Of a DNA stretch of 64,000 nt, positions 5,557 through 63,674 are shown one piece after another. The DNA lies in assembly GCA_011525805.1 (NCBI GenBank), contig WYBR01000096.1, forward strand, positions 8,969 to 72,968, in the 5' to 3' direction. This DNA is from Vicinamibacteraceae bacterium (GTDB taxonomy: Bacteria; Planctomycetota; Phycisphaerae; Phycisphaerales; UBA5793). Within the stretch, counting starts at the first letter, position 1, and each line of letters begins with the position of its first letter. The position numbers and the translations under genes were made by a program. The notes beneath the pieces were generated by a model that saw nothing but the letters and a program-made list of their open reading frames with translations, did no database searches and had not been told where the DNA came from.

Positions 5557-7053
5557 TCACTCGAAAGCGGCCGGCCGCACGCGGCTCGTCGCGCATCGCT
5601 GCCGATCGACGCACTGCAGGAGAATCTCAATGCCGCGCGCGCCATGCGGAACAAAGCGATCGAGCGACGCGACACCCTTCGCGTCGGCCGCCGCGCTGCC
5701 GATGACCGCCGGCGCGTCGAGCATCACGTTCACGCCGGGGCAGCCGGGAATCGGCGTCGAGCCTTCGCGCCGGGCGTAGACGAACCAGATCGTCGCGCCG
5801 GGTTGTGCGCCGATGGCGGTGAGGCGGTTGACGCGACCCGCCTGCCCGGGGATGGGTTCGAGCACGGCGAAACTGGTTCCCTGGAACTCGTAGCAGCCGA
5901 GATCGACGATGGGGGCGCTGCCCCGGCCGCCGTCGGGCGTTCCGGGGTCGTCGATGAAACGCGGGTTGAAGTCGAGATCGAGCGTCTGCCCCGGCGGCAC
6001 GCCGTCGTTGTCGCCCGCGTCGATGCAGGGGGAATTGGGCGCGAGTCTCAGGTCGCCGCCGGCGGGATCGACGAGCATGGGATCGGCGCTGAAGTTCCCC
6101 TCGCCCGGCCAGCCGCCAGTGATGCAGGAGTAGGTGGCGGTGATGCTCGACTTGAAGTTGCGGATTTCGTTGGGTGTGTTGTTCCAAAGAATGCTGTTGA
6201 CGATGGCCGTTTCCGCGCCGTTGTTGGTGATCGCCCCGCCCTCGCGGTCGGCCCGGTTGTTGATGAATGTGCAGTTGCGGATCACGGCATGGGAGGACAC
6301 GTTGGCGACTGCACCGCCGAACCCGCGCGCGTAGTTGTTGTAGAAGCGGCAGTTGACGACCTCGGTCGTTGTGTCGATGTTCGCCAGATAGACGGCGCCG
6401 CCATGACTGGCCGTGTTGGAGTCGAAATCGCAGTCGATGATTTCGCACTGCTCGGGTTCATCGATCAGAATGCCGCCGCCCCACGTGCCAATGTTCGCCC
6501 TGAACGTGCAGCCCGTGACTACAACTGCAAAGGCGAGATAACGGATATTGATCCCTGCTCCCCATGTACCATTTCCGAATGCAATCGTTACGTTCTCAAT
6601 GGAGGCATACTCAGTTTCGGCGAAAGCGGAGACCACAGTCTTGGTGTTGTCGGTCGCATCGTTCAGAATACCGATATCTCCGCTGAGGAGGGTCTGAAGC
6701 GCCCGTTGCGATCGAGGCGGGCGCGTGAGTTCGTATCCCGAAAAGCAACCGTAGACGCCGACATTGCTCACGAGAGCAAACGTGGCGTCTCGATTGCCCG
6801 TGCCCCTGTCGGGCTTGTACACGCCGCCGGCAATCCATATCTCTCGCACCTCCGGCTCGCTTCTAGCATGATCAAGAGCGTCCTGCAAGTCGCGGTACGC
6901 AGTCTGCCAGGAAGCGCCGTCGCCGCCCGGCGTCGCCCTTGCGTCTACGTGAATGACGGGCTGCGCCTGAACGTTTGCGCTCAGGAACAACCCCAAGGCT
7001 GAAACGAGTACCCCGGACGCTGGGCGAAGTGATCGGCGCATGGCGATGATCAT
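5557..7053 (-). CDS. Secreted right-handed beta-helix (pectin lyase-like) protein with C-terminal ~100-aa domain
   Basis: Signal peptide; DGASWQTAYRDLQDAL, IWIAGGVYKP, FxxNxA..GGA repeats, DP.LVD...DLRLAPNSPCIDAG, VDLGCYE. Confidence 0.85.
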   Translation of the reverse strand: MIIAMRRSLRPASGVLVSALGLFLSANVQAQPVIHVDARATPGGDGASWQTAYRDLQDALDHARSEPEVREIWIAGGVYKPDRGTGNRDATFALVSNVGVYGCFSGYELTRPPRSQRALQTLLSGDIGILNDATDNTKTVVSAFAETEYASIENVTIAFGNGTWGAGINIRYLAFAVVVTGCTFRANIGTWGGGILIDEPEQCEIIDCDFDSNTASHGGAVYLANIDTTTEVVNCRFYNNYARGFGGAVANVSSHAVIRNCTFINNRADREGGAITNNGAETAIVNSILWNNTPNEIRNFKSSITATYSCITGGWPGEGNFSADPMLVDPAGGDLRLAPNSPCIDAGDNDGVPPGQTLDLDFNPRFIDDPGTPDGGRGSAPIVDLGCYEFQGTSFAVLEPIPGQAGRVNRLTAIGAQPGATIWFVYARREGSTPIPGCPGVNVMLDAPAVIGSAAADAKGVASLDRFVPHGARGIEILLQCVDRQRCATSRVRPAAFE

Positions 7054-7667
7054 TCAACGAGCGTGAAATAGTACGTGAAGGGCTGCACGTCCGGGTCTTC
7101 CGTCAACCCGAGATCGGATTTCAGCCCGTCCGCCTTCTCAATGATGCGGTACTCGCCCAAGGGCGTGACGCAAGGGCAGACAGGACACCTCGTGAGTTCC
7201 AGCACGTTGAGCGAGGTGTTCGCGCCGCTGGGAAGCAGGTCGTAGAGAAGCACTTCGAGACTTGAGAAGGCGCAGGTGCCTCCCGTAACCCACTCCTCGC
7301 TTTGCGGGTCGAACCACTGCAAGTCAACGTGAGGCCCGTCCCCTTCGAGGCGGATCGGGCCGTAAAAGACCAGGTCGATCCACTCGTCGCCGGTCTTCCA
7401 GTTGGCGAGGGAAATCTCGTTTGACCCGCCCGAACCCGAAGGCGGGAAGCAGGCTTCGAGATGGAGGTGGAAGCCAAGATCGTTTCCGGCGCCGTCCACC
7501 ATCCCGATCGTGCCCCCGCCAGTAGTGACGAGGGAGTAAGCGGGGTTCTCCTCACTGGCGTTCGCGTCAGTCGCCCAGAAGCGCTCGTTGTTCGCGGCGT
7601 TGAAGATCAATTCGCGGTCCTCGTCATTGCCCGGCGAGTCGATGTCAGCGCGCGGGTCTCTTTGCAT
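7050..7667 (-). CDS. Hypothetical acidic protein, possibly a truncated secreted-protein fragment
   Basis: Its stop overlaps the next start (ATGA); extracellular-type composition but no signal peptide. Confidence 0.55.
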   Translation of the reverse strand: MQRDPRADIDSPGNDEDRELIFNAANNERFWATDANASEENPAYSLVTTGGGTIGMVDGAGNDLGFHLHLEACFPPSGSGGSNEISLANWKTGDEWIDLVFYGPIRLEGDGPHVDLQWFDPQSEEWVTGGTCAFSSLEVLLYDLLPSGANTSLNVLELTRCPVCPCVTPLGEYRIIEKADGLKSDLGLTEDPDVQPFTYYFTLVE

Positions 7668-7760
7668 GCCCGATCATCCGTGTTCTACGCATCGGCATGT
7701 CACAACCGCATCGTGCAGGCATATGCTCACAACGACCGAAGGAAGCCCGTGAGGACTGCT

Positions 7761-8138
7761 ATGACGTTGCACATGACCGCTGGCCAGATCAGCACCCTGC
7801 GAGGATGCGCAACGTGGGTCATTCGTTCGGTCGCGGTCATCCTCGTTGCCGTCGGGGCGTATCTCATGCTCAAGCGCCTTGCGTTCGGCGTGGGGGTGTG
7901 GGACTTTGAGACGGCGCTGCAGGTCTGGCAGGGCATCGGCGAGGAGCAGTCCTTCTATCGCGGCATCGCACTGGTCCTCACGGGGTTGCTGCTCGGCTTG
8001 TTTTCGCGGCGCATCGCGGCGTGGGTCATCGCCATGCCGCCGACGGGCTGCCCGCAGTGCGGCTACGCGGTGGCGCCGCCCACCGGCCGGACGGCGCCGC
8101 CGCGGTGCCCGGAGTGCGGGCTGCCGCTGGAGGATTGA
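7761..8138 (+). CDS. Small membrane protein with C-terminal Zn-ribbon
   Basis: GAGGA SD, two TM helices, CPQCGY...CPECG. Confidence 0.7.
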   Translation: MTLHMTAGQISTLRGCATWVIRSVAVILVAVGAYLMLKRLAFGVGVWDFETALQVWQGIGEEQSFYRGIALVLTGLLLGLFSRRIAAWVIAMPPTGCPQCGYAVAPPTGRTAPPRCPECGLPLED

Positions 8139-8165
8139 CCCGCGGGGGCGCCGCATTCGCCCGAG

Positions 8166-8193
8166 TTGACCCGCCCCGGCGGATTCGTATACT
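8166..8193 (+). promoter_or_regulatory. Sigma70-type promoter of the S10-spc operon
   Basis: TTGACC (8166-8171), 16-bp spacer, TATACT (8188-8193), ~155 nt upstream of rpsJ. Confidence 0.7.
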
Positions 8194-8348
8194 CACGGGC
8201 TTTTCACCGCGCGTCGGCCATGGGGGCCGATGCGCCAGTCCGGTGGTGGGCCAGGCAGGTTGTGCAGGCCGGCGGCGAGAAGGCGATGCCCCGCGGGATC
8301 GTCCCCGGCGTCGCAGTTGAACGATTCAAGTCGATCCCAGGTGACTCA

Positions 8349-8657
8349 ATGACCGAAGCCAAGATCCGAATCCGCATGGAAGCCTACGACCACCAGGCGC
8401 TGGACGCCTCGGCCCGCGAGATCGTCGACCACGCCAAGCGCACCGGCGCCCGGGTGTCGGGTCCGATCCCGCTGCCGACGCGGATCGAGCGCTACACCGT
8501 GCTGCGCGGCCCGCACATCGACAAGAAGTCCCGCGAGCAGTTTGAGATCCGCACCCATAAGCGCATCATTGACATCCAGGAACCCAACTCCCGCACGGTC
8601 GAAGCGCTCAATCGCCTCGTGGTCCCGGCGGGTGTTTTCGTTAAGATCAAAGCGTGA
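8349..8657 (+). CDS. rpsJ: 30S ribosomal protein uS10
   Basis: [11 protein letters not shown]...GPIPLPT...[14 protein letters not shown]. Confidence 0.98.
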
Positions 8658-8847
8658 GTCGAGTTGTCGCCGCGGTCGCCTGAAGAGGCGGCCGTTTGCA
8701 TTGGTGGGTCGGTCGGCCCCGCGTTGCGGGGCCGATCTCCCGGAAAAACAAGAGGTTTTCAGCCCCGGCCGTGTTTCCCGCTGACGCCGGCGATCGTTCG
8801 CCGACCCCTCGCGGGCAACCTCCGGCCCGAATCGGAGCATCATCGCC

Positions 8848-9537
8848 ATGAGCAAGGCACTCCTTGGCCGCAAGATCGGCATGTCGCGCTACTTCACCGA
8901 GGAAGGGAAGAACGTCCCCGTCACGGTGATCCAGGCGGGTCCGTGTTTCGTGACCCAGATCAAATCAAAGAACGACCACGGCTACAGCGCGATCCAGATC
9001 GGCTTCGAGGACGTTGAGCCGGGGCGGACCACGATGCCGCTGATCGGCCACGACGCCAAGGCCGGCGTCAGCCCCAAGAAGTTCCATCGGGAGGTCCGCC
9101 TCGATGAGGACGCCAAGGACGCCCAACTCGGCCAGCAACTCACCGTCGAAGTCTTTGAGGGCACGAAGTTTGTGGATGTGGTTGGGGTGAGCAAAGGCAA
9201 GGGCTTCCAGGGCACCATGAAGCGCCACAACTTCAAAGGCCTGTGCGCTTCGCACGGCACGGAGCGCAAGCACCGCTCGCCCGGGTCGATCGCCGGGCAC
9301 GCAACCAACCGCGGCACCGGCCCCAAGCCCAAGAAGGGCAAGAAAATGGCCGGCCACATGGGAGCCGAGCGCGTGACCGCGCGCAACCTCGACGTGGTGG
9401 AAATCCAACCGGAAAGAAACATTTTGCTGGTCAAGGGGGCTGTCCCCGGGCCGAATGGCGGCCTACTCTTCGTCCGCACTTCGGTGCGTCTGGGCCGCTC
9501 CAAGCAACTCGCGGTGAGCGGCAAGAAGAAGAACTAA
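8848..9537 (+). CDS. rplC: 50S ribosomal protein uL3
   Basis: LLGRKIGMS, SKGKGFQG, HRSPGSI, KKMAGHMG. Confidence 0.98.
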   Translation: MSKALLGRKIGMSRYFTEEGKNVPVTVIQAGPCFVTQIKSKNDHGYSAIQIGFEDVEPGRTTMPLIGHDAKAGVSPKKFHREVRLDEDAKDAQLGQQLTVEVFEGTKFVDVVGVSKGKGFQGTMKRHNFKGLCASHGTERKHRSPGSIAGHATNRGTGPKPKKGKKMAGHMGAERVTARNLDVVEIQPERNILLVKGAVPGPNGGLLFVRTSVRLGRSKQLAVSGKKKN

Positions 9538-9791
9538 CTCCAGCAGAGCGAGTGATTTTGGAATTTCGGGCGGGGAGAGCATCCCCCCCGGCCGGGGAAG
9601 CCCGACGACTTCATGGGTACTGCCCGGCGACGACAGATACAGCAACGCGGCTCAAGCAGCAGCGAACCGAGTCGATTCCTGCCGCGCCGGAACAGTGATG
9701 GATGGCGCCGGAGGATAGGCGAAACGAGCCTTCAACCCGCACGAGAGACACCCGGGTGACTCCCAAGCGGGCGAGGCAAGGTGGAACCACC

Positions 9792-10478
9792 ATGATTGAA
9801 CTGCCTGTTTACGATTTGGATGGAAAGCAGGTCGACACGTTCAGCGTCGACGAAGCGCTGCTCGGAGGTGAGATCCGCCCCGCGCTGCTCAAGCAGGCCT
9901 ACGTCCGCTCCCACGCCAACCGGCGCCAGGGCTCGGCCCGGACGAAGAACCGCGGCAGGGTCGAAGGCTCGACTCGAAAACTCTTCAAGCAAAAAGGCAC
10001 GGGCAACGCCCGCCGCGGCACCGTGCGCACCAACATCATGAAGGGCGGCGGCGTCGCCTTCGCCAAGACCCGCACCGGCGAGGATTTTCGCAAGGACATG
10101 CCCCGCAAGATGCGCCGCCTCGCCAACCGCAACGCTCTGCTCGCGAAAGCCGTCGACCAGGAGATCAAGGTCATTGACCGGATCAACCTGGACGCGCCAA
10201 AGACCGCCGCATTCAAGTCGATGCTCGAGAAGGTCGGTATCGACCGCTCCTGCCTCGTCGCGCTCGACTCCGCGAACGTCAACGCCCGCCGCAGCGCCCG
10301 CAACCTCGACGGGGTGGACACGATCCGCTGGGAGCAGTTGAACGCGTTTGAACTGCTCAACCATCGCTACCTCGTGATCGAGAAGGCGCACCTCAAGGCC
10401 TTCATCGAAGGCGCGCACTGCACGGGAGGCGCCGAGGGCGGCGCGCCCGCCCCGGCCGCGAAGAAGGGAGGCCGCTGA
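9792..10478 (+). CDS. rplD: 50S ribosomal protein uL4
   Basis: [32 protein letters not shown]. Confidence 0.97.
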
Positions 10479-10753
10479 TGGAAGCCACCACCGTCATCCG
10501 CAAGCCGCTGGTCACGGAGAAGAACTCGGCCGCGGCGGAGGAGAACCGCTACGTCTTCGAGGTCGATCGACGTGCGACCAAGCAGGACATCAAGCGCGCC
10601 GTTGAAGAACTCTACAAGGTGCGCGTGACGAGCGTGAACACCGCCAATCGCATCGGCAAGGTCCGCCGCACGCGGTTCGGCTACACGAGGACGCTGGACC
10701 TGCACAAGGCCGTCGTGCGGGTGCATCCCGACGACCGGATTGAACTGTTTTGA
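10478..10753 (+). CDS. rplW: 50S ribosomal protein uL23
   Basis: [25 protein letters not shown]. Confidence 0.97.
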
Positions 10754-10801
10754 AGCCGGCGTCGCGGCGACGGGCCGCGGCGCGACCAGAGGATTTGAGC
10801 C

Positions 10802-11656
10802 ATGCCGATTCGAGTCTACAAAAGAACCAGCGCCGGGCGGAGGAACTCCTCGGTCAACCTCCACGCCGAGGTGACCAAGCAGACGCCTGAGAAGTCGCTG
10901 CTGCGCCGCTATTCGAAGACGGCCGGGCGCAACAACCAGGGCAAGATCACCGCGTGGGGTCGCGGCGGCGGGCACAAGCGGCGCTACCGCGCCATCGACT
11001 GGAAGCGACATCTCGACGATGTCCCCGCGAAGGTCGTCGGCGTCGAGTACGACCCGAACCGCTCGGCCCACCTCGCGCTGCTCGAGTACGCCGGCGGGGA
11101 GCGGCGCTACATCATCGCGCCCAAGGGGATCAAGGACGGCGAAGTGCTCCTGAGCAGCCGCCAGCGCATCGAGCCCAAGGTCGGCAACTGCATGCCGCTC
11201 AAGTACATCCCCACCGGCCTGAACGTGCACTGCCTCGAGATGGTGCCGGGCAAGGGCGGGCAACTCTGCCGCGCCGCGGGTATGTCGGCCCGCCTGACGA
11301 ACCGTGAGGAGAAGTGGGCGACGCTGGTGATGCCCTCGGGCGAGATCCGGCAGGTTTCCATCGAGTGCCGCGCGACCATCGGCGAGGTCGGCAACACCGA
11401 TCACCAGCAGGTGCGCCTGGGCAAGGCCGGCCGCAGCCGGCACCGCGGCCGCAAACCCAAGACGCGCGGCGTGGTGCGCAATCACTACGACCATCCGCTG
11501 GGCGGCGGCGAAGGCAAGTCCAAGGGCGGCCGCGCCCCCGCCAGCAAGACCGGCGTCTTTGCCAAGGGCGGACGGACGCGCAAGCGCAAACTCGCCTCCG
11601 CCAAGCGGATCATCCGGCGCCGCCGCAGCAAGCGCTACGGGCAACTGACGCTCTGA
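10802..11656 (+). CDS. rplB: 50S ribosomal protein uL2
   Basis: GRNNQGKIT, EYDPNRSA, DHPLGGGEG. Confidence 0.98.
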   Translation: MPIRVYKRTSAGRRNSSVNLHAEVTKQTPEKSLLRRYSKTAGRNNQGKITAWGRGGGHKRRYRAIDWKRHLDDVPAKVVGVEYDPNRSAHLALLEYAGGERRYIIAPKGIKDGEVLLSSRQRIEPKVGNCMPLKYIPTGLNVHCLEMVPGKGGQLCRAAGMSARLTNREEKWATLVMPSGEIRQVSIECRATIGEVGNTDHQQVRLGKAGRSRHRGRKPKTRGVVRNHYDHPLGGGEGKSKGGRAPASKTGVFAKGGRTRKRKLASAKRIIRRRRSKRYGQLTL

Positions 11657-11713
11657 GGAATCGAATCGACGCGGCGGGCGGATTCGTCCCGCCGGTCAAG
11701 AGGAACGTGAATC

Positions 11714-12004
11714 ATGGCTCGATCACTGAAAAAAGGCCCCTTCGTCGAAGAGCATCTCTTCAACAAGGTGATGAGGATGTCCCAGGGAGGACGGCGCGAG
11801 CCGATCAAGACCTGGTCGCGCCGCTGCACCATCGTTCCCGAGTTCGTCGGGCACACCTTCAAGGTGCACAACGGCCGGTCGTTCCTGGACGTCTTCGTGA
11901 CGGAAGACATGGTGGGGCACAAACTCGGCGAGTTCAGCCCCACCCGGCAGTTCCGGGGCCACACGAACAAGAAGGAAGGCATCGTCTCCGGCGCCAAGGG
12001 CTGA
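11714..12004 (+). CDS. rpsS: 30S ribosomal protein uS19
   Basis: [30 protein letters not shown]. Confidence 0.98.
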
Positions 12005-12033
12005 GCAGGCGCCGAACGAGAGGTTGACGCATC

Positions 12034-12567
12034 ATGATTCTGAACGCACAACGATTCAACGCGGTGATGAAGGCCGCCGGGGCAAGCCCTGAGGACCTCG
12101 CGGCCGCCATCAGGCGGCCGGGGATCAACGCCGTCTCCGCGCTGCGCAACTGGTCGAAGGGCAACTACAAGCCGGCGCCGAAGCGCGAGGACATCCGCGC
12201 CCTCGCCGCCGCGCTTCGCGTCGGCGTGAGCGACATCGCCGACTTCGACGGCGCGCACAAGTGGGCGCGGATTTCGCCCCGAAAGGTGCGGCTGGTGTCT
12301 GACCTCATCCGCGGCCGCGACATCGACACCGCCCTCACCGTGCTCAAATTCAGCAAGAAGCGGGCGGCGGTGTTCGTTCGCAAGGCCCTCGAGTCGGCCA
12401 TCGCCTCGGCGGAAGACAATGAGGCTGATCTCAGCCGCCTCGTCGTCAGCGAGTCGCGCGTCGACGAGGGGCCGACGATGAAGCGCTTCCAGCCCAAGGA
12501 CCGGGGCCGGGCGCACCCCATCATGAAGCGGTCCAGCCACGTGCGCGTCGCGGTGGCGGTCGCTTAG
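12034..12567 (+). CDS. rplV: 50S ribosomal protein uL22 with N-terminal XRE-like HTH domain
   Basis: C-terminal [11 protein letters not shown]...[27 protein letters not shown] is uL22; ~68 extra N-terminal residues have an HTH pattern; SD GAGG upstream. Confidence 0.95.
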
Positions 12568-12655
12568 GCAGGAGCAGGCCGGCGCGGCGCCGAAGCGCCC
12601 GCCCGCGAGAGACGAGACTCGGGGCCGCGGCCCCAGGAAACGGACTGGTCGAACC

Positions 12656-13354: not shown

Positions 13355-13416
13355 CCGCCGAGTGTGATTCCGCTTGCGCCGCGGCGCAAGTCCGCCAGAC
13401 GAGAGGATGAGTTCCG

Positions 13417-13836: not shown

Positions 13837-13887
13837 CGAACCCGAGCGCAGCGCCGCGGCGATCCGCTCCAGAATCGGGAACACGAC

Positions 13888-14094
13888 ATGAAGGCCAAAG
13901 AAGCACACAAACTGAGCGATGAGGAAGTGGCGGTCGAGATCGATCGCATCCGGCGCCACCTCTTCGAACTTCGCACCCAGGCCGTCACCGAGAAGATCGA
14001 GGACTCATCGCAGTTTCCCAAGAACCGCAAGGACGTGGCGCGGCTGCTCACGGAGCGCCGTCGACGCGAGATCGAAAGGCAGAGCCAGTCATGA
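13888..14094 (+). CDS. rpmC: 50S ribosomal protein uL29
   Basis: LFELRTQ...RKDVARLLT; operon position. Confidence 0.95.
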   Translation: MKAKEAHKLSDEEVAVEIDRIRRHLFELRTQAVTEKIEDSSQFPKNRKDVARLLTERRRREIERQSQS

Positions 14095-14411: not shown

Positions 14412-14470
14412 TTGCACGACCATCGATCGCGTCGCTGCGGCGCCGCGGTCTGAGATGAACGGATCAAGCC

Positions 14471-14857: not shown

Positions 14858-14859
14858 TC

Positions 14860-21267: not shown

Positions 21268-21885
21268 TCAGGCCCGGCGGCGGCGGGCGCCGCAAGCGAG
21301 GCCGGCAAGGCCGAGCAGCGCCAGCGAGGAAGGCGCCGGGATGTAGTTGATGTAGCCGGAGAAGGTGCGGGGCGAGAAGCGGCTGCCGCCGAACTCCGGC
21401 GCGCCGCGCGCCACATCGCTGAAAAGTGTCAGGTTGGCGTCGGAGAAGGTGGTCTGGTGGCCGCCGCTTCCCGTGCCGGTGTAGCGCACGCCGCCGATGA
21501 GCCCCTGGAAGAGGAATCCCGTCACTTCGCCGTGCGCGAGGGCGATCGGGTTGTTGAGAAAGAAACTGGTCGGGTTGGTCGTACCGGCGGAGAACGCATC
21601 GACCTCATCGACGATCGACCAGCCGTCAGACGTGCCGTCGAATCCGACGTAGGAGCCGGTGCGGCGCCAGACGCGCAGACGAACGGGGCCGTTCTCAGGC
21701 TCGCCCGAGACCATGCCGATTTCGATGACGGTGAGATTGCCGGACGTCGCCGTAAGATCGACGAACACTCCAGCCCCGTCTTCGCTGCGCCCGTTGTTGG
21801 GAGGCGCCGTGTTCAGGATGTCGGCCGAGGCCACGGTGGTCGCCAGCGCGAGCGCGGCGAACGACAGAAACGCCTTGCGAATCAT
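21268..21885 (-). CDS. PEP-CTERM-type (IPAP variant) exosortase target protein
   Basis: Signal peptide; C-terminal IPAPSSLALLGLAGLACGARRRRA. Confidence 0.9.
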   Translation of the reverse strand: MIRKAFLSFAALALATTVASADILNTAPPNNGRSEDGAGVFVDLTATSGNLTVIEIGMVSGEPENGPVRLRVWRRTGSYVGFDGTSDGWSIVDEVDAFSAGTTNPTSFFLNNPIALAHGEVTGFLFQGLIGGVRYTGTGSGGHQTTFSDANLTLFSDVARGAPEFGGSRFSPRTFSGYINYIPAPSSLALLGLAGLACGARRRRA

Positions 21886-22244
21886 GATTCCTCTTCCTCC
21901 TCAATCTGTTGCGCTCGGCGCGACGCCTGCACGGCCGCGAATGCGGATGGGACGTTCATTGGCGCCCGTCGAGCCCACGTCAGGCGGCGAGCGCCGCCCA
22001 CTCATTTCTCTCCTCGAGCCCCCGGACCCGGAGGCCCACGATGCTGCAAAGATAACCCAAGAACGCCGCCCGGACAAGTACAAATCCTGAAAATCGTCAG
22101 ATTTTGTTCGCAAGTGCTAAGGCCCGGCCGCCGTCGCGGTGGCCAGCCATGTGAAGCGTGCAAAAATGGGGACTCTGACGAAACCGGGAGGCCTCCGCCA
22201 GCGCCTCGCGATGGCCCGCCTCCACCCATATCGGGGAAGGGGGG

Positions 22245-47904: not shown

Positions 47905-49467
47905 ATGCGACTCACTTCGGCCCGGGCGATTGAATGCGTCACGAAAGCGTGGATGTTCTTGTCCGCGATCGCGCTTCTGCTCGGCGGGGCAGCGCCTTGC
48001 TCCGCTCGCCAGTGTAATGGCTGGGAGGAGATTCTGGCCGCCGGACCAGCCGCCCGATCGCAGTTCTGCATGGTTTACATGGACCGCGCCCGGAAGACCC
48101 TGCTGTTCGGCGGCCAGGGGCGCGAGGGCGAAGTGTGGGTCAAGTACGACGACACATGGACCTGGGACGGCGCTGAATGGACGCAACTTCAGGTTGCGGG
48201 TCCCACGCCGCGCGTCGGCGCCAACATCGCCTACGACCCGCTGCGCGACCGCGTTCTGCTCTACGGCGGGCTGACCTCAGCCGGAAGACCGACCGACACA
48301 TGGGAGTGGGACGGGCAGCGCTGGCGGCTGCTCTCGGAAACCGGGCCGGAGATCGTCGGAGAGCGCTCGATGGCGTTCGACCCCTCGATCGGCAGGATCA
48401 TCCTCTTCGACGGTCGGACGGGACGGCCGTCGAAAACCTGGGTCTGGACCGGCCACATCTGGCTGCTCATCGCCACCAATGGTCCGGCCGTTTCGAGTTA
48501 CGCCCTGGTGACCGATACGGCGCAGGGGCGCATCGTCATGATCACGGACACGTCCTACCGCGAGATCTGGGAGTGGAACGGCAGCGCCTGGCACTGGATT
48601 GCGAAGCACCAGGGTCCGGAACTCTGGTACAAGTTCGATGCGGCCTTTGACGCATCGCGCAGCGCGATCCTCGTCACCGGCGGCGCTTACGATGGAAACT
48701 ACAACGATGAGACGTGGGAGTGGAACGGTCAGGACTGGTCGCTTCTCGCCAAGGAGCCGCGGCTGGCGCGTTACTCTCACCGAATGGTCTATGACGCCTC
48801 GAGAGACCGCCTCGTGCTCTTCGGCGGATACAACGACTTGGGGCGCTTCGCGGACACCTGGGAAGCGGATGCGGACACTTTCCTTTCGATCATCGAGCAG
48901 CCGCGTTCCATTGTCGCGATTCCCGGCCATGACGCGGGGTTTTCGGTTCGCACCGTCGGCTCGGGGCCGATGGCCTATCAGTGGCGCAAGGACGGCGAGG
49001 CGCTGGAGGACGGCGGACGCATCTCCGGCAGCCGAACCGCCGGGCTGCGCATTGAAGACGTCGGTGAATCTGATGTCGGCGCCTACGACGTTCTCGTGCG
49101 GCGCGAGTGCGGCGAGCGCCTCAGCGAGTCAGCCAGTCTGACGCTGCGTGTGATGCCGCTCCTCGAGGTGGGCGGACACTGTCCCGGGCAAGTCGGAGTG
49201 CGGCTGACCCGCGCGCGGCCGAACGGATCGGCCTTGCTGATCTATGGGGGAACTCGACGAGAGTGGTTCCAGTGGATTGAGCCTTGCGGGCCGATGTACC
49301 TTGAGATCGGGCCGCCCGGGGCAGCGCTGATCGGGTTCTTCCGCGTCGATGAATCCGGCTCGGTCAACCTTCGCGGCTACGCCGGACCGGGGCGATGCAG
49401 TGGCTACCTGCAGTTTGTCGATCTTCGCCAGTGCCTGCTTTCAAACGTGGTGGAAGTGCCTGACTGA
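47905..49467 (+). CDS. Secreted Kelch-like beta-propeller + Ig domain + C-terminal domain protein
   Basis: Signal peptide; repeats LFGG...DTWEWDG..W; YQWRKDG...D.G.Y Ig motif. Confidence 0.88.
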   Translation: MRLTSARAIECVTKAWMFLSAIALLLGGAAPCSARQCNGWEEILAAGPAARSQFCMVYMDRARKTLLFGGQGREGEVWVKYDDTWTWDGAEWTQLQVAGPTPRVGANIAYDPLRDRVLLYGGLTSAGRPTDTWEWDGQRWRLLSETGPEIVGERSMAFDPSIGRIILFDGRTGRPSKTWVWTGHIWLLIATNGPAVSSYALVTDTAQGRIVMITDTSYREIWEWNGSAWHWIAKHQGPELWYKFDAAFDASRSAILVTGGAYDGNYNDETWEWNGQDWSLLAKEPRLARYSHRMVYDASRDRLVLFGGYNDLGRFADTWEADADTFLSIIEQPRSIVAIPGHDAGFSVRTVGSGPMAYQWRKDGEALEDGGRISGSRTAGLRIEDVGESDVGAYDVLVRRECGERLSESASLTLRVMPLLEVGGHCPGQVGVRLTRARPNGSALLIYGGTRREWFQWIEPCGPMYLEIGPPGAALIGFFRVDESGSVNLRGYAGPGRCSGYLQFVDLRQCLLSNVVEVPD

Positions 49468-55924: not shown

Positions 55925-56048
55925 CCGTCCGCTGGTCGGAGTTGACTCCATTCCCGAGGTGATGTTCGTCCCGCTGGCCGCGGACCGTGGCGGCTGGGGC
56001 GCGGCTACGATTCCCCGCAGCCGCGAACGTGGCGGCGGGAGCAGGAGC

Positions 56049-57005
56049 ATGAACGGGTCCATCGGGATCGTGTTGCTGGCGTTTTCGACCGTCGTTCAGG
56101 GCGCGGCGGTCCCCTTTCGGGCCGCGCCCGCGGCGGCCGACCTCCAGCGCCCGTCGGGACCGAGCCTGAGCGAATACGCCTCCCAGTTGAACGACCCACG
56201 GCTGGACGTGCGCGAGCGAGTCAGCCAGCGGCTGGAGGCGGACGCTTCGATCGGCGGCCCGGACATCGAAGCGTTCGTGAAGGAGCGCTGGGAGGAACTC
56301 GCCCCCGAGTCGATCGAGCGCCTGCTGATGGCGGCGCAGTCGCGGTTCGTGGCGCGGCCCGGGGCGATCGGCATCGAGTTCGAGCAGGGGGCGGCGATCG
56401 TCATGAACGTCAGGCCCGAAGCCCCGGCGGCGCGCGTCCTGCGACCGGGCGACCGCTTCATCAGCATGAACGGCGTGAGGCTGCCCGAGGATCGTTTCGA
56501 CCAGCAGGCCGAACTTCGGCGAATCATGTCTTCGCTCCGCGCCGGCGACATCGTCAGCGCCCGCATCCGCCGGGGCCGCGACGAGATCGATGTGACCTTT
56601 GCCCTGGCCGACCCGACCCAACTGCGCGAGTTCGAGGGGTACCTCGTCGAAGTGAGGCGGGAGATGCTCGCGCTCTGGAACGCGCGTCGGCGCGAGAGCT
56701 TTCCCCCGGCCGTGAAACTGGCCATCGACCTCGGCGTCGAGCCGGTGGACGTCTCCGACCGCGACGGGGCGTCGTCGCTTGCGCCGGAAGAGCGCCGCGG
56801 GCTGATCGTCGAGGAACTTCGCCGGCGCATCACCGATGTTTCGGAGCGGATTGCGCTCCTGGCGGAGCGGACGCAGGAGTCGGCCGACGCCGGGCGGCGC
56901 GGTGAACTCGAGCGGGAGTACCTGGCGCTGCGAGACGAACTTTTCGGTCTGAACGCCCGGCTGCGGCTGGTGGAGTCGAGTGCGCCCGGCCGGGCGAGGC
57001 GCTGA
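56049..57005 (+). CDS. Exported PDZ-domain protein
   Basis: AGGAG SD, signal peptide, GAIGI...PAARVLRPGDRFISMNG. Confidence 0.75.
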   Translation: MNGSIGIVLLAFSTVVQGAAVPFRAAPAAADLQRPSGPSLSEYASQLNDPRLDVRERVSQRLEADASIGGPDIEAFVKERWEELAPESIERLLMAAQSRFVARPGAIGIEFEQGAAIVMNVRPEAPAARVLRPGDRFISMNGVRLPEDRFDQQAELRRIMSSLRAGDIVSARIRRGRDEIDVTFALADPTQLREFEGYLVEVRREMLALWNARRRESFPPAVKLAIDLGVEPVDVSDRDGASSLAPEERRGLIVEELRRRITDVSERIALLAERTQESADAGRRGELEREYLALRDELFGLNARLRLVESSAPGRARR

Positions 57006-57100
57006 GTCGCGGCGCCTTGCCGCGCGGCCGGCAGCGCGGCTTGTTCGCGCGTTCGCGCCCCGCTAGCCTACGTCGCACGAATCAGGAGAAGTCGCGGGCG

Positions 57101-58411
57101 ATGCCGGGCCTGTCGCCAATCTGCCGTGCATGGAGGTACTCCGAGAGAGGCGCTGGCTGCCCGCCGGACCTCTCGACGCGGCTGGCGCCCCCCTATGACC
57201 TCGTGAGCGCCGACGTCAAGCGGCGCCTCCTCGCCGCCGACCCGACCTGCGCCGCCTCCATCGACGTGCCCCACCTGCCGGTCGATCGCGTCGGCCCGGA
57301 GTCCTCCTACGGGCGAGCGAGGGAGATTTTCGATCAATGGCGGACGGACGGAACGCTGCACGCGCTCGATCGACCGGTGCTCGGCGTGCTGCGGCAGACG
57401 TTCCGCGATGGTTCGAGCGTGCTTCGCCGCCACGCGCTGCTGGCCGACCTTCCGTTGGAGCCGCTGGGCGACTCGGGGCTTTTCGCCCACGAGGAAACGC
57501 GCTCGGGACCCCGCGGCGACCGCTTCGCCCTGCTGCGGGCGCTGCGCGTGCAGACCTCGCCGATCTTCGGCCTCTTCAGCGATTCGGATGGATCCGTGGA
57601 GGAGGCGCGCATGGCCGTCGAGTTTGCCTCCGAGCCGACGCTCGTCGGCCTCGCGATGGATCGGACGCTCTCGGAACTCTGGCTCGTGGAGGAGGAGTCG
57701 CTCATCTCGGGCCTGCTGGAGGCGTTCGGCCGGCGCGACGTCATCATCGCCGACGGGCATCATCGCTACGTCTCGCAACTGGAGTACGTTGAGTCGCTCG
57801 GGTCGGCCGCGCCGGCCGCGGCTCGCTCCTGCGTCTTCGCCCTCGTCGCGCAGGAAGACACGGGGATGTCCATCCGGGCCATGCACCACGTTCTGGGCGG
57901 GATTGAGGAGTATCGCATCGAGGCGGTCATGGAGGCGCTGAGCGACGAGTGCCGCTTCGAGGAAGCGCCCGGCGGCGCCGTCGACCTCGTCGACCAGGTC
58001 GCCCGCGCCTGGTTTGAGCGGTCCAATCCCGTCGGCCTGATCGACTTCGCGACCAGGCGGTGCTTCGTCATGACCTCGCGTGTCATTGATCCGCTGGTCG
58101 AGAAGTTTCCCGAGGCGCCCGAGGCGTGGCGGCGCTGCGGGCCGGTGGTGTGCGAGCACCTGCTCGTGCAGCGGACGCTGCGCGATCGGCTCAACGGGGG
58201 GCGCGAACCGCTCCGCCAGCCCGTCTTCGACGCGGCCGACCTGCAAGCAGGCCCGTCGATCCTCCCCGGCGCGCAACTCGGGCTGGTCATGCTTCCCGTT
58301 TCCCTCGCCGACGTGCTGACCATCGCGCCGAGCGGGCGGCTGCTCCCGGCGAACTCGACCTTCTTCTGGCCCAAAATGCCCACGGGGCTGATCTTCAAGT
58401 CACTGGAGTAA
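57101..58411 (+). CDS. DUF1015 family protein
   Basis: APPYD, HEET, SPIFGLF, IADGHHRY, STFFWPK..GL. Confidence 0.88.
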   Translation: MPGLSPICRAWRYSERGAGCPPDLSTRLAPPYDLVSADVKRRLLAADPTCAASIDVPHLPVDRVGPESSYGRAREIFDQWRTDGTLHALDRPVLGVLRQTFRDGSSVLRRHALLADLPLEPLGDSGLFAHEETRSGPRGDRFALLRALRVQTSPIFGLFSDSDGSVEEARMAVEFASEPTLVGLAMDRTLSELWLVEEESLISGLLEAFGRRDVIIADGHHRYVSQLEYVESLGSAAPAAARSCVFALVAQEDTGMSIRAMHHVLGGIEEYRIEAVMEALSDECRFEEAPGGAVDLVDQVARAWFERSNPVGLIDFATRRCFVMTSRVIDPLVEKFPEAPEAWRRCGPVVCEHLLVQRTLRDRLNGGREPLRQPVFDAADLQAGPSILPGAQLGLVMLPVSLADVLTIAPSGRLLPANSTFFWPKMPTGLIFKSLE

Positions 58412-58414
58412 CGC

Positions 58415-58855
58415 ATGAGCATCACGCTTGCCTCCGCCGCACACCTGCGCCGCCGGGCGCGCCTCGCCATCCTGCTGCTTCTCGCCGGCCTGTTGAGCGG
58501 GTGCGCCTGCACAACGTGCGACTTCGGCGGCGACCTTCCGCCCCGGCCGGCGCGGATCAACCACCTCGCCTTCTTCAAACTCAAGAACCCCGCAGACGCC
58601 GTCGAACTCATCGCCGACTGCGACGCCCACCTGGCGACGATTCCGGGCGTGCTGTCCTACTACGCGGGAACCCACCTCGACGTCGGCCGCGGCAACGTGG
58701 ACGGCGACTACGACGTCGGCTTCTTCGTCGGGTTTGAGACGGAAGAGGCCTACCGGCAGTACGTCAACCACCCCAGCCACGTGACGGTGGTCGAGAAGTG
58801 GAAGCCGCGCTGGGAGTGGATCCGCGTGCACGACGTGCTGGATGAGACGCCCTGA
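58415..58855 (+). CDS. Dabb (stress-responsive A/B barrel) lipoprotein
   Basis: Lipobox LSGC; INHLAFFKLK, IPGV, YVNHPSH. Confidence 0.85.
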   Translation: MSITLASAAHLRRRARLAILLLLAGLLSGCACTTCDFGGDLPPRPARINHLAFFKLKNPADAVELIADCDAHLATIPGVLSYYAGTHLDVGRGNVDGDYDVGFFVGFETEEAYRQYVNHPSHVTVVEKWKPRWEWIRVHDVLDETP

Positions 58856-58926
58856 GGGGGTTATCGTGCCGGTCGGATTTCCGAAGAAGGCCCTGGTCCG
58901 AGTCCTTCGATCGAACGGGAGCATCC

Positions 58927-59652
58927 ATGAGCCAGTATCACGCCGGCTACGACCCGGCTTATCCGTCCGGGGGCGAACCCGCCCGCACCAGCCTGCTGTG
59001 CGTATCCGCCCTGGTTTCCAGCGCGATCTTCTGCTGTCCGCTCGCCTCGCTGCTGGGCGTTCTGCTGGGGATCGGCGGCATGATCTCGGTGAGTTCATCC
59101 AACGGCCGGCGCAAGGGAAGCGGGCTGGCCTTCGCGGCGATCGCGCTGGGCATTCTCGCGATCATCGCTCAGTTCGCCGCGGTGCGGATCTTCTGGCCGC
59201 AGTTGCGGTCGTGGGTCGAGTCGGGAGTGCAACTCGCCACCGGCCCGTCCGAACTCCTCAGAGACCTCGAACTCGGCGACTACCAGTCGGCGCGCACTCA
59301 CCTGTACTCGGCCACTGAGCAGCAGATCACGGATGGGCAGTTGCGCTACTTCAAAGAGCAGGTGGTGGCCCGATACGGGTCGTTCCAGCAGTGGCAGCCC
59401 CCGGCCGGCCAGGGCTTCGAGTTCAGCGGCGCCGGCGAGTGGCCGCACGTCTACCGCGGAACCATCCTCTTCTCGAACGGAGCGCAGCAGGTGACGCTCG
59501 AACTGACGCTCAAGGTCTCGCAGACGATCGTGATCGAGGAGACCGGCATATCGCGACTCACGATTCACGACCCGGCGCGCGGAGACCTGACGCTCGATCC
59601 CTCGACGCCCGAAGCGGAAGACGCGCCCGGCGAGGGCGGGGGAGGCGGCTGA
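58927..59652 (+). CDS. DUF4190-type membrane protein
   Basis: RTSLLCVSALV...LLGVLLG...GRRKGSGLAFAAIALG. Confidence 0.75.
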   Translation: MSQYHAGYDPAYPSGGEPARTSLLCVSALVSSAIFCCPLASLLGVLLGIGGMISVSSSNGRRKGSGLAFAAIALGILAIIAQFAAVRIFWPQLRSWVESGVQLATGPSELLRDLELGDYQSARTHLYSATEQQITDGQLRYFKEQVVARYGSFQQWQPPAGQGFEFSGAGEWPHVYRGTILFSNGAQQVTLELTLKVSQTIVIEETGISRLTIHDPARGDLTLDPSTPEAEDAPGEGGGGG

Positions 59653-59766
59653 GAGACTGTTTCACAACGGTGGGACGGGCGTCCCCTCCGTCCAAGTCGA
59701 ACGGGCCAGAGGCCCGTTCCACCACTTCGACGTCAGTTGCGAAACAGATTCTGAGCGCCGGTTGCC

Positions 59767-60825
59767 TTACAGCCGCATTTCTTCGCCGCTCGAAGCGAGG
59801 CGGATCGTCTTGCTGTCGATGTTGTGAAACGCCTCGATGCGCCGGACCGTGCGGAAGCGTGAGCGCATCAGCACACTCTCGGTGATGCAGTGCTGCTGGT
59901 CGTAGCGGATTCCGCGGAGCATGGGCGAGTCGCTGATGCCGGTGGCGACGAAGATGATGTGATCGCCCTTGGCCATTTCGCTGACAGTCCAGATTCTCGC
60001 GAGGTCGGCTTCGGTGCAGCCGTGCTCGGTCAGGAGACTCTTGCGTTCGGCGTCGTCCCGGGGCCAGATGCGGCTGAGTTGCTCACCGCCGAGGCACTTG
60101 ATGGCGGCGGCGGCGATGACCGCCTCGGGGCTGCCGCCGATGCCGACGTAGAGATCGACGCCGGAGTTGGGCAGGCTCGGCGCGATCGCCGCCGCCACGT
60201 CGCCGTCCGAGATGAGCCGGATGCCGCAGCCCGCCTTGCGGATCGCGTCGATGATGTGCTGGTGCCGCGGCCGGTCAAGGAGGACCGCGACGAGGTCCTT
60301 GACGCGCTTCTTGAGTTTGAAGGCGATGATGTCGAGGTTCTCATCCATCGGCGCGTCCATGCGCACCTTCCCCGGACCCTCCGACACCTTCGGGCCGAAC
60401 GCGATCTTCTCCATGTAATGGGAAGGAATGACGGGGAAAAGTTCGGCGGGATCGTCATCGGGGTCTTCGCAGGCGGCGACGGCGAGCACGGAGACAGCGC
60501 CGGGCAAACCCTTGGCCGTCAGCGTGGTGCCGTCGATCGGATCGACGGCCACGGCGAGGGGGACGGCGTCCTCCGCCCAGGTGCCGAGCCGCTCATCGGT
60601 GAAGATGCCCGGTGCGTTGTCCTTGCGGCCTTCGCCGATGCGCACAAGGCCCTTGCAGGCGATGAGTTGGAACATGCCGCGCATCGCGTCGGAGGCGGCG
60701 GCGTCGGCCATGATCTTGTCGCCCTTGCCGAACCACTTCCACGCCGCGATCGCGGCGTTCTCCGTCGCGCGGACAAGATCGAGATCGATCAGTCGCTCCG
60801 GATCGGGCCGAGTCTTGCTCGCCAT
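59767..60825 (-). CDS. glpX: Fructose-1,6-bisphosphatase class II
   Basis: RATENAAIA, IGEG.KD.AP, VDPIDGT, DRPRH, SDGDV, FVATGISD. Confidence 0.95.
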   Translation of the reverse strand: MASKTRPDPERLIDLDLVRATENAAIAAWKWFGKGDKIMADAAASDAMRGMFQLIACKGLVRIGEGRKDNAPGIFTDERLGTWAEDAVPLAVAVDPIDGTTLTAKGLPGAVSVLAVAACEDPDDDPAELFPVIPSHYMEKIAFGPKVSEGPGKVRMDAPMDENLDIIAFKLKKRVKDLVAVLLDRPRHQHIIDAIRKAGCGIRLISDGDVAAAIAPSLPNSGVDLYVGIGGSPEAVIAAAAIKCLGGEQLSRIWPRDDAERKSLLTEHGCTEADLARIWTVSEMAKGDHIIFVATGISDSPMLRGIRYDQQHCITESVLMRSRFRTVRRIEAFHNIDSKTIRLASSGEEMRL

Positions 60826-60963
60826 GATGCTCCTCGCAGTGCGCTGCGCCGCCGGCCGCGGATCAAAGGCCGCGAAGCATCGCGAAGCGCGGCGCCGGTC
60901 GATCGGCGGCCGCCTCGCTCTCCCCCGGACTGCGGCGCGGTGAGCGGTCTTCAACAGGCCGCG

Positions 60964-61872
60964 TCATTGTACCGGCGCATCCCTCGCGCAGCGAAAGCCG
61001 GTGTGGCAGAGTCCTTCGTCCGGCGGCGCGTCGGCTCGGCCGGAGACTCGGTACCCGTGGCACACCGCGGGATCGCAGAGAAACGACCCGCCGCGCTGGA
61101 CCTTCTTGCTCTCCGCGGTCGGCTCGTAGGGCTTTCCCCGCTCGGAATAGGGGCGGAACCAGTCGTCGACCCACTCCCAGACGTTGCCGCCCATGTCGGT
61201 CAGCCCCAGCGGCGTGGCGCCGAACGCGCCGACGGGCGAGGCGCCGAGGTAGCCGTCGGCGGCCGTGTTGAATTTCGGGAATTGACCCTGCCAGGTGTTG
61301 GCCATGTAGCGGCCGTCGATGACGAGCGAATCGCCCCAGGCATATGTCGGCCCGCCGTTCTTCGCGTTGCGCGCCGCGTGCTCCCACTCCACCTCCGTCG
61401 GCAGGCGCTTGCCCGCCCACTCGCAGTACGCGACGGCGTCGATCCACGAGACCTGAGTCACGGGATGGTCATCGGGTGCGGCGGGCTGGTCGGGTCCGAA
61501 GGGATGATGCCACGTTGCGCCCTTGACGAGCGACCACTCGCCGGTCTCGAAGTCGAAGACGCCCGAGTCGCCGTAGGTCTCCGCGTGCGTGATGTGCCCG
61601 GTCGCTTGCACGAAGGCGCGATACTGTGCGACGGTCACGGGGTGAATGTCGAGGAAAAAGGGCTTGACGTCGGCGGTGAAAACCGGCTGCTCCTGCGGCA
61701 GGCCGTCGTTTGAGCCGATGCGCGTCTGGCCGCCGGGGATGTAGACCATGCCCGGCGGAGGCGCGGGAAGCGGCGCCGGCGAGGGCGCGGACTTCTTGCA
61801 CCCGGCGACCAACGCCGCGATCACGCACGCGGCCACGAGGCAATGTCGCAGAACAGGTGTCTCGCCTGCCAT
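60964..61872 (-). CDS. Formylglycine-generating enzyme family lipoprotein
   Basis: RLPTEVEWE, DMGGNVWEW, RGGSFLCDPAVCHGYR (both catalytic Cys present), GFRC. Confidence 0.9.
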   Translation of the reverse strand: MAGETPVLRHCLVAACVIAALVAGCKKSAPSPAPLPAPPPGMVYIPGGQTRIGSNDGLPQEQPVFTADVKPFFLDIHPVTVAQYRAFVQATGHITHAETYGDSGVFDFETGEWSLVKGATWHHPFGPDQPAAPDDHPVTQVSWIDAVAYCEWAGKRLPTEVEWEHAARNAKNGGPTYAWGDSLVIDGRYMANTWQGQFPKFNTAADGYLGASPVGAFGATPLGLTDMGGNVWEWVDDWFRPYSERGKPYEPTAESKKVQRGGSFLCDPAVCHGYRVSGRADAPPDEGLCHTGFRCARDAPVQ

Positions 61873-62069
61873 GAGTCAATCCTACCGGCTGCTCGACCGC
61901 CGTGCGCTTGGTTCCGGAGCCGTTCGCCATGCGCCGTCACCACACGCCGCATCCACCCGGGCAGCGCGGGGAGGGCGAGTTTGCGTATCATCACGGCAGG
62001 GCAGCAGAGGGGAGCCGGAGTCTCCGGCGATCGGCTCCGATCGCGCCCGGAACGTGGGGAGGTGTCAAA

Positions 62070-63674
62070 GTGGTGAGATGTCATTTCGGCGCTGCGACGC
62101 GTCATTGGCGGGTTCGTGCGCTTCCGGGCTGGGTCGCGCTCATGGCCGGCTTGATGTGTGGCGACTCAACTTCATGAGGTCAGTGCTTTCAATGGACGCA
62201 GGTCAGCCAAGTTGGACCTGGGTTGCGAGACCACAGCGCCATGGTCTTTGATACCCAACGGGGTGTCGCTGTGCTGTTTGGGGGAATGAACGAGCGTTCG
62301 GAGTTGCTCGGCGACACCTGGACGTGGGACGGGAGCGAATGGCTCCAGGTGGCGGAGGCAGGTCCAACGCCTCGGGTCGGTCAAAGAATGCCCCGGGCCA
62401 GTCACGCAATGGCCTATGACAGCGCTCGCGGCGTCGTCGTGCTCTTTGGCGGTGGGGGTCAGTCGGGATTCCTGGGCGACACGTGGGAGTGGGATGGAAC
62501 CCGGTGGGAACTCAAGGCCGTCCAAGGACCGCCTCCGCGGCCCAATCACGCGATGGCGTACGATGCGGCACGCGGTGTCACCGTGCTGTTCGGCGGTTTC
62601 GACTCGACGTTCGGCCACCATTGGGACGACACCTGGACCTGGGACGGCTCGAGTTGGACACAGGTGCAGACATCCGGGCCGGAGGGGCGAGAAGAGCATG
62701 CCATGGCGTACGACCCTGTTCGTCAGGTCGTTGTGCTCTTCGGAGGAGATGCACCCTTCAATCGACTGGGTGATACCTGGGAGTGGAACGGATCGGAATG
62801 GACGCGCGTCGCCACGAGCGGTCCGAGCGCACGGTACCTGCACACCATGACCTGGCACGAGTCCCGGGGGACGGTCTTGCTCTTCGGCGGCATCGATGGT
62901 TCGCGCCAAGGCGATACCTGGGAGTGGAACGGTTCAACTTGGCGGCTACTCTCCACCTCCGGCCCTCCGCCCCGATCACAGCACGCCATGACCTATGACG
63001 CCACGCGCGATGCCGCCATCATTTTCGGCGGCCGCGATCGGTTCAACGTACGTCTCGGCGATACCTGGGAGACCACCGGCGCCACGCTTGACATCGTCGA
63101 GCATCCCCGCGACCAGACGGCGCGCGGCGGGGCGCCCGCCTCCTTCACCGTCGTCGCCGAGGGACGCGGCGAACTCACCTACCAGTGGCGCCGCAACGGG
63201 CAGTCGCTCGTGGACGGAGGGACCATCATCGGCTCGCAGACCGACACACTCACCATCACGCGCGTCTTTCGCAGCGACGCAGCCGAGTACGATGTCAAAG
63301 TCACCGGCGACTGCGGCACGGTGACCAGTGAGCGCGCGACGCTGAGCGTCGTCGATCCTTCGCTCACCGTGAACGCCACGTGCCCCGATGGCGGTCCGAT
63401 CTCCGTGGCCTGGCAGTACGCGACGCCCTCGGGGGCCGTGGCCCTGCTCTATGCCGCCAACACCGGACGGTTCCGCATTCCCAATTCATTTGAGTGCGCG
63501 GGCACGCAACTCGGTCTCGGCGCGCAGTCGCTGCGCGTGGCATGGCGGGGTGAATCGGGGTCGGAGGGCTCCCGAACCATCTTCGCGAGTGCGGGGCCCG
63601 AGGTGTGCGGCGGATACATGCAGTTGATCGACCTCTCCTCCTGTGCCCCGAGCAATGTCGCGCGCGTTGAGTAG
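62070..63674 (+). pseudogene. Kelch-like + Ig + C-terminal domain secreted protein interrupted by an in-frame TGA at 62175-62177
   Basis: GGAGGTG SD, GTG at 62070, signal peptide ...MAGLMCGDSTS*GQCFQWTQV in frame with track ORF 62223..63674; paralogue of 47905..49467. Pseudogene status is uncertain. Confidence 0.65.

Follow-up and report, generated by a model that had tools for sequence, protein, structure and literature searches.

The window analyzed here, a stretch of 64,000 nucleotides from a planctomycete of the order Phycisphaerales (C80:8969-72968 of the source assembly, where C-numbers denote contigs), encodes genes A, B and C, whose proteins end in one and the same domain, hereafter the tail domain. 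This domain belongs to a huge family that is strictly C-terminal, is carried by diverse exported passengers, is absent from curated domain libraries and stands in a slot that is otherwise taken by anchors. We propose, at a probability of roughly 0.55, that Sec-exported proteins share the tail as a C-terminal address or anchor domain, analogous but unrelated to the C-terminal domain (CTD) of type IX secretion system (T9SS) cargo and interchangeable with the PEP-CTERM and dockerin signals. To our knowledge, little is understood of how planctomycetes position their very numerous exported enzymes and adhesins in the outer membrane or outside it. The source assembly comprises 4.54 Mb in 138 contigs, with a completeness of 97.4% and a contamination of 1.1%.

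The tail domain in the source genome

An original prediction, made from the letters of the window, had claimed that a beta-helix protein (gene A) and two Kelch proteins (genes B and C) carry signal peptides and a common C-terminal tail, and that this tail is a lineage-specific secretion or surface-attachment tag distinct from PEP-CTERM. These genes and two related ones are placed in the window as follows.

5557..7053, minus strand: gene A, 498 residues, with a clear signal peptide, Chlam_PMP beta-helix repeats and the C-terminal domain
5575..5868, minus strand: C-terminal domain of gene A (profile envelope, residues 396-493 of the 498-residue frame)
47905..49467, plus strand: gene B, 520 residues, with a clear signal peptide, a Kelch propeller, an I-set immunoglobulin (Ig) domain and the C-terminal domain
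49165..49452, plus strand: C-terminal domain of gene B, the copy used for folding
62070..62177, plus strand: signal-peptide-like segment of gene C, terminating in a TGA at 62175-62177
62178..63674, plus strand: mature part of gene C, with a Kelch propeller, an I-set domain and the C-terminal domain; the frame starts directly after the in-frame TGA
63366..63662, plus strand: C-terminal domain of gene C (profile envelope)
1..2552, minus strand: SBBP/DUF7948-type gene that crosses the left window edge, with its C-terminal domain 26-322 bases left of the window (C80:8647-8943)
21271..21900, minus strand: PEP-CTERM paralog of a tail-bearing protein (TIGR02595, 23.6 bits against a cut-off of 16)

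The common tail was borne out by the alignment of genes A, B and C, in which 15 columns are invariant, among them those of the near-terminal Q..D...C..S.V; the three tails are not covered by Pfam or NCBIfam. In gene A, a choice_anch_Q match below threshold (residues 335-391) lies directly before the tail. The tail had been described as having no transmembrane (TM) helix; none follows it, and the proteins end 3-5 residues beyond it. Signal peptides are clear in genes A and B; in gene C, the claim stood only for a segment that an in-frame TGA separates from the mature protein.

A hidden Markov model (HMM) of these three tails was searched against all stop-to-stop frames of at least 60 residues in the source genome. 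By itself, this model yielded 170 domain matches in 169 frames (E<=1e-5), far too many for the likeness of the tails to be a coincidence, and after three further rounds there were 241 domain matches in 240 frames, so that the many matches expected from the original prediction were indeed found. Tail carriers amount to about one gene in fifteen (~6% of the proteome) of this planctomycete, and the copies are spread across 122 separate 20-kb stretches. The strictly C-terminal position that had been expected was also observed, since in 222 of the 241 matches only 0-8 residues lie between the envelope and the stop (modes 3 and 5); of the other copies, nine leave 13-19 residues before the stop, three lie truly inside the protein and seven are cut by contig ends. 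As to export, a signal-peptide-like start was detected in 198 of the 241 by a crude rule of our own (a start codon, a basic residue and then an uncharged hydrophobic run), in line with the expectation that carriers would have signal peptides, and contig ends cut many of the others. The SBBP gene at the window edge, for which the same ending had been raised as a question, does have it: its frame (C80:8638-11520, minus strand, i.e., window 1-2552 plus 331 bases leftward) carries the tail domain at E 1.8e-23 with the three-tail HMM.

The passengers identified in 59 full frames include DUF7948 with SBBP repeats, FG-GAP, Kelch, PQQ_2, LVIVD, BNR and beta-helix proteins, as well as subtilases (S8), carboxypeptidases (M14), glucose/sorbosone dehydrogenases (GSDH) and CHRD; in 23 of these frames, no Pfam family reached E<=1e-5. 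This make-up is that of a surface or secreted proteome and agrees with the earlier claim that passengers differ, given that propellers, peptidases, dehydrogenases and beta-helices all share the tail.

Two other features of the family were recorded. Third-position GC averages 0.80 in tail-bearing genes, lower than the 0.857 of other genes. In two frames (C1:21816-23201 and C8:7531-8424), the domain is followed by a cysteine-rich extension of ~110 residues without NCBIfam match, and is thus not terminal.

Exchange with other C-terminal signals

What appears from sequence comparison to be the strongest functional evidence is the swapping of the tail with other signals in the anchor slot. In total, 29 tail-less frames of the source genome resemble the passengers of tail proteins, most of them cut by contig ends. 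Five of these paralogs are complete, with identities of 44-70% over 169-285 residues, and they have PEP-CTERM-type ends, four of which score above the TIGR02595 cut-off. In each case the homology breaks off 3-14 residues ahead of the partner's tail domain, with 18-27 residues of the PEP-CTERM protein left. One of the five is encoded in the window (21271-21900, minus strand), and its passenger is 64% identical over 188 residues to that of the tail-bearing C95:197227-198483, while another directly adjoins its tail-bearing paralog. PEP-CTERM and dockerin are established as surface or extracellular signals.

The DUF7948-SBBP passenger can be followed further. In another genus of the same GTDB family it has the same tail. 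Within the order, a homolog from one sister family has a canonical PEP-CTERM end and a homolog from another has two dockerin-like repeats at its end, both recognized by eye without a profile. Among 26 long distant DUF7948-SBBP homologs, 17 end in the TIGR03437 domain (Soli_cterm), which reaches the last residue. Other distant homologs include one with the PxKF 'rightmost' domain and one from a planctomycete with a GC-type dockerin at 27.5 bits (cut-off 29). The NCBI name of the Phycisphaerales members is 'SBBP repeat-containing protein', i.e., it refers to the passenger only. Those of the Soli_cterm-ended homologs (P0166 and 16 others) that carry a label belong to Blastocatellia/Blastocatellales, and they constitute a parallel unsolved case.

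Sequence and predicted fold

The consensus of the domain spans ~95 residues and includes four cysteines. Across 225 full-length copies, all four cysteines are present in 121, none in 48, only the second and fourth in 41, and 15 show other patterns. The first cysteine co-varies with the third and the second with the fourth, which indicates two disulfides, and these co-varying pairs fit disulfides that would form outside the cytoplasm. The most conserved positions are a glycine (99%), a glutamine (95%), a proline (88%) and an S-N pair near the end (83% and 71%). The last residue of 229 copies is most often E (87), P (56) or Q (24).

An alignment of 81 tails was the input for AlphaFold2, for the comparison with Pfam and NCBIfam and for profile-profile work. 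The model of the gene B copy is an all-beta domain with eight strands, with a mean predicted local distance difference test (pLDDT) of 96.4 and a predicted template modelling score (pTM) of 0.87. Foldseek retrieved no PDB chain at E<=0.001 for this model. On the other hand, VIA-align against 48,161 chains returned 51 chains at Z>=8, with generic Ig-like domains in the top rows and a chicken Ig-like receptor as the best match (Z 10.1, root-mean-square deviation 2.1 over 81 residues). The domain is therefore confidently predicted to be an ordinary Ig-like beta-sandwich, and a fold this ordinary gives nothing specific on function.

None of the 81 tails matched a family of Pfam (best E 0.013) or NCBIfam (best E 0.009), which agrees with the original view of the tail as undescribed. 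The best values are at noise level: Ig_7 at E 0.013, bMG3 at 0.044 and Big_3_5 at 0.1 in three of the 81, with CBM_6 also weak. A profile search of PDB sequences gave nothing below E 0.33, and no description of such a Planctomycetota domain was found in open-access papers and bioRxiv, including the accessible parts of PMC11131199 and PMC12078418.

A generic Ig-like fold with faint resemblance to Big_3_5, bMG3 and CBM_6 could also belong to an ordinary ligand-binding domain, similar to carbohydrate-binding modules or adhesins, which merely happens to be last in many proteins and binds particles or polysaccharides rather than the cell's own envelope. Stand-alone and tandem copies exist, as such a domain would allow, and the passengers are typical of particle-attached degraders. 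However, binding modules are not normally constrained to a place 0-8 residues from the stop, as is seen here for hundreds of proteins from several families. Moreover, the tail domain is found on propellers, proteases and dehydrogenases alike and is exchanged with PEP-CTERM at the same junction. We therefore consider an ordinary binding domain improbable.

Distribution

A profile search against 1.84 billion cluster representatives returned 4807 proteins at E<=0.001, 2277 of them at E<=1e-10, and the best 150 of the 4807 all have a copy no more than eight residues from the C-terminus. The neighbors found in the ESM Atlas are 30 unnamed clusters, some of them of only 98-118 residues, and their few placed members are Planctomycetota. 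In addition, a DNA-pattern scan with nine close tails detected 73 loci in eight metagenome-assembled genomes (MAGs), labelled Phycisphaerales, Phycisphaerae, Planctomycetota or Planctomycetaceae, and in a contig of one MAG labelled Candidatus Kapaibacterium.

Within the GTDB family of the source organism, all 11 genomes (five genera) carry the domain, with 83, 105 or at least 150 matches each. In an even sample of the phylum, for which up to 12 candidates per genome were scored, matches were found in 39 of 401 Planctomycetota genomes from at least 10 GTDB families, a patchy distribution. In this sample, the other families of the order (15 genomes) and the rest of the class (eight genomes) gave no match. 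The original prediction of a lineage-specific tag hence has to be widened, as the domain is not limited to one lineage. Its position is retained at a distance: all 20 matches from 13 distant genomes in eight other GTDB families end 0-2 residues before the stop.

The MAG labelled Candidatus Kapaibacterium has five tail matches on two contigs only. Since none of 150 other genomes of its T9SS-bearing phylum carries the tail, we read these contigs as misbinned and probably derived from Phycisphaerales.

Comparison with known C-terminal signals

The T9SS is considered a system of Bacteroidota and their kin only. Its type A CTD (TIGR04183/PF18962, Por_Secre_tail) is one of the closest known systems and shares the architecture: a Sec signal, diverse cargo and, at the extreme C-terminus, a small all-beta domain, which in the tail is predicted to be Ig-like. 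Carriers number tens to hundreds per genome, and the passengers are of the same kinds (propellers, S8 and M14 peptidases). The tail domain differs in its two predicted disulfides, in its occurrence in Planctomycetota and in the lack of sequence or profile similarity. Specifically, none of the 81 tails matched PF18962 or TIGR04183 at E<=1, and hhalign of the tail profile against 29 T9SS CTDs gave a probability of 0.18%. The top rows of the VIA-align and Foldseek comparisons hold generic Ig domains, with no T9SS CTD among the matches listed. A T9SS CTD is described as a beta-sandwich export signal in the accessible part of PMC4804311.

PEP-CTERM/exosortase (TIGR02595) resembles the tail in its position on paralogous passengers, and both systems coexist in the source genome. 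It consists of a motif of ~25 residues followed by a TM helix and a basic tail, whereas the domain described here is a soluble fold of 100 residues without TM helix. No TIGR02595 match was found in the 81 tails, and the tail is a predicted all-beta domain with mostly E, P or Q as its last residue, so that the two are distinct, as originally suggested. The Soli_cterm domain (TIGR03437, of Solibacter; a paralog_domain in NCBIfam) is likewise an uncharacterized, strictly C-terminal paralogous domain that occurs on the same SBBP passenger. However, it measures 225 residues as opposed to ~100, it matched none of the 81 tails and hhalign against 17 Soli_cterm domains gave a probability of 0.4%. Finally, dockerins (type I repeats and the GC-type NF041540) are also C-terminal non-catalytic modules that tether secreted proteins, but they are EF-hand pairs and the tail domain is all-beta. 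No dockerin family was among the Pfam matches of the 81 tails, and dockerin_GC was not found in the source genome.

Domain-only proteins and the search for a partner

Several observations weigh against the tail being an address or anchor domain of exported proteins. Among them, the signal-peptide count rests on the crude rule given above, and neither a flexible Pro/Thr-rich linker nor a conserved cleavage motif precedes the domain. Furthermore, about 22 of 31 small frames, as counted by eye, consist of a signal peptide directly followed by the domain. Of the best 150 representatives, 19 are shorter than 190 residues and 19 have one or two extra internal copies, and some proteins consist of 2-3 copies in tandem. 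A pure export tag explains neither the domain-only nor the multi-copy proteins, and the domain may therefore act by itself. Both fit better if the domain binds an envelope component or other copies of itself. Domain-only genes often form tandem arrays, such as the four at C38:68006-69598, the three at C32:3098-4360 and, at C82:31010-34647, three complete copies plus an interrupted one. As a precedent for tag-only proteins we considered PorA, which was rejected because it has an N-terminal Ig-like domain of its own (accessible part of PMC7712824).

These proteins lend themselves to a different explanation, namely that the domain is a docking or assembly module which, by binding to other copies of itself or to a repeated receptor, forms a surface layer or matrix of protein. 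Domain-only proteins would then be the bulk subunits, and enzymes and propellers would be displayed through their tails, as in cohesin-dockerin pairs or with an S-layer anchor. The ~22 domain-only proteins in arrays of 2-4, the wide occurrence of small proteins among the best representatives and the ESM Atlas clusters, the tandem-copy proteins and the presence of dockerin-like repeats in the same slot in a sister lineage (by eye) all agree with this. Nevertheless, a receptor carrying repeated partner domains was not detected, and intermolecular cross-linking by disulfides cannot be general, because 48 of 225 copies have no cysteine. A docking module is thus possible, though we judge it unlikely.

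Also on the opposing side is the outcome of the search for the machinery that would read an address domain. No sorting machinery was found among T9SS parts, C25 peptidases, outer-membrane protein candidates and gene neighborhoods. SprA and PorV have no match in the source genome, and the same searches gave scores above cut-off in four of four control genomes. C25 peptidases (PF01364) were tried as a PorU-like sortase and rejected as not specific, with two in the source genome and at least one in 221 of the 401 phylum genomes; specifically, they occur in 28 of 39 tail-positive and 193 of 362 tail-negative genomes and are missing from two tail-rich ones. The neighborhoods of five domain-only arrays (52 proteins) encode housekeeping proteins throughout. 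All 41 genomes sampled from the order have secretins (the source genome has five), and for this reason their distribution does not discriminate, although a secretin route is possible.

Other candidates were no more suggestive. An outer-membrane-like protein without Pfam family was restricted to the same genus and three distant genomes among the 50 searched; it does not track the tail and was rejected. A crude rule based on C-terminal aromatic residues selected 16 candidate outer-membrane proteins, which comprise a TonB receptor, porins, PagL, FlgH and several that are not outer-membrane proteins. An all-against-all comparison of the neighbors of tail genes retrieved only ABC ATPases, kinases and spurious frames. 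The Slam/type XI secretion system model PF04575 had no match in the source genome and was likewise silent in the control, and is hence uninformative.

Since no outer-membrane translocon could be linked to the domain, the proteins might instead stay in the enlarged periplasm of planctomycetes. There the tail would serve retention or quality control, either as a tether to peptidoglycan or a membrane or as a signal for a C-terminal-processing protease. Disulfides fit the periplasm as well as the surface. The anchors that alternate with the tail (PEP-CTERM, dockerin and Soli_cterm) are, however, held to be surface or extracellular signals, and a purely periplasmic role seems quite improbable to us.

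The likeness to T9SS cargo (a Sec signal, diverse cargo and, at the extreme C-terminus, a domain of ~100 residues predicted to be a beta-sandwich) raises the question of a very divergent CTD served by a cryptic T9SS. Copy numbers are comparable, with 20-114 TIGR04183 matches in each of five T9SS-bearing genomes of the 'Kapaibacterium' phylum. The TIGR04183 model, which detected CTDs in all five of these controls, found none in the source genome, and this absence, together with that of SprA and PorV and of any similarity between the 81 tails and the CTD profiles, already largely refutes a cryptic T9SS, as does the lack of the tail in the 150 genomes of the T9SS-bearing phylum. The PorU model reached only 60 bits in the source genome (cut-off 420), from two ordinary C25 peptidases. 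GldM and GldL had no match there, a weak negative given that these models found one of four positive controls. In the window itself, a lipoprotein of the FGE-sulfatase fold (60964-61872, minus strand) scores 94 bits on GldK/PorK and could be taken as a trace of such a system; however, this is far below the cut-off of 350 and is matched by SenA (112) and EgtB (104), and the lipoprotein was rejected as a GldK ortholog because it shares only the generic FGE fold. We regard a cryptic T9SS as very improbable.

The original prediction of a secretion or surface-attachment tag is thus supported in part, namely by the C-terminal position, the signal-peptide-like starts and the sharing of the PEP-CTERM slot; the machinery was not found in these searches, and the domain-only and multi-copy proteins go beyond what a mere tag explains.

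Interrupted copies of the tail genes

Gene C is an open frame at 62223-63674 on the plus strand. Upstream of this frame, the TGA at 62175-62177 separates the signal-peptide-like segment from the mature protein. In RNA-library contigs from two other studies this codon reads TGG (A>G at 62177), and it reads TGA in one DNA contig and one RNA-library contig that possibly derive from the source sample or its study. Because the contigs from other studies read TGG, the window allele carries a nonsense change, which is strain-specific in an otherwise ordinary, transcribed-looking member of the family. RNA-library contigs of three studies span gene C including its tail. This stretch (window 62000-63700) was also found in bioreactor, sludge and wastewater metagenome runs of 12 studies, among them six RNA libraries.

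In-frame stops were also observed in two paralogs of one passenger family, a TAA at C82:34426-34428 and a TAG just below C65:53757. They occupy adjacent codons within the tail domain (...LVRW*Y... and ...LVRWY*S...), and the remainder of the domain is readable downstream. This may represent coincident pseudogenization or something regulated.

A possible address system of Planctomycetota

If the tail acts as an address or anchor domain, it would be a self-folding Ig-like beta-sandwich of ~95-100 residues, in most copies stapled by two disulfides, which from the extreme C-terminus of Sec-exported proteins would confer a common fate in the envelope, i.e., retention on the cell surface or delivery to it. 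It would be functionally interchangeable with PEP-CTERM, dockerin and other C-terminal anchors, and would presumably be read by a receptor or translocon. Candidates for this partner, which would be other than a T9SS, are a surface receptor, a glycan and any of the five secretin-type channels. The element that is recognized may include the free C-terminal strand (...C-x-[TV]-S-N-V-V-x-[IV]-E/P).

Going further, we tentatively suggest that the domain could be the address tag of an as yet undescribed system by which Planctomycetota deliver proteins to the outer membrane or attach them to the surface, a functional analogue of the T9SS assembled from unrelated parts, although we hold this broader proposal to be doubtful. 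If true, such a system would handle ~6% of the proteome in one family of Phycisphaerales and smaller sets in at least 10 others. Its machinery should be findable owing to the sharp boundary between the source family (at least 83 copies in 11 of 11 genomes) and its sister families (0 of 15 genomes), and these 11 rich and 15 empty genomes offer a clean handle for the hunt for a partner. The source organism is common in bioreactor and sludge metagenomes, which makes metaproteomic work feasible without culture. For annotation, the domain marks a whole secretome of ~240 proteins whose shared part is unnamed in the libraries and whose NCBI names follow the passenger.

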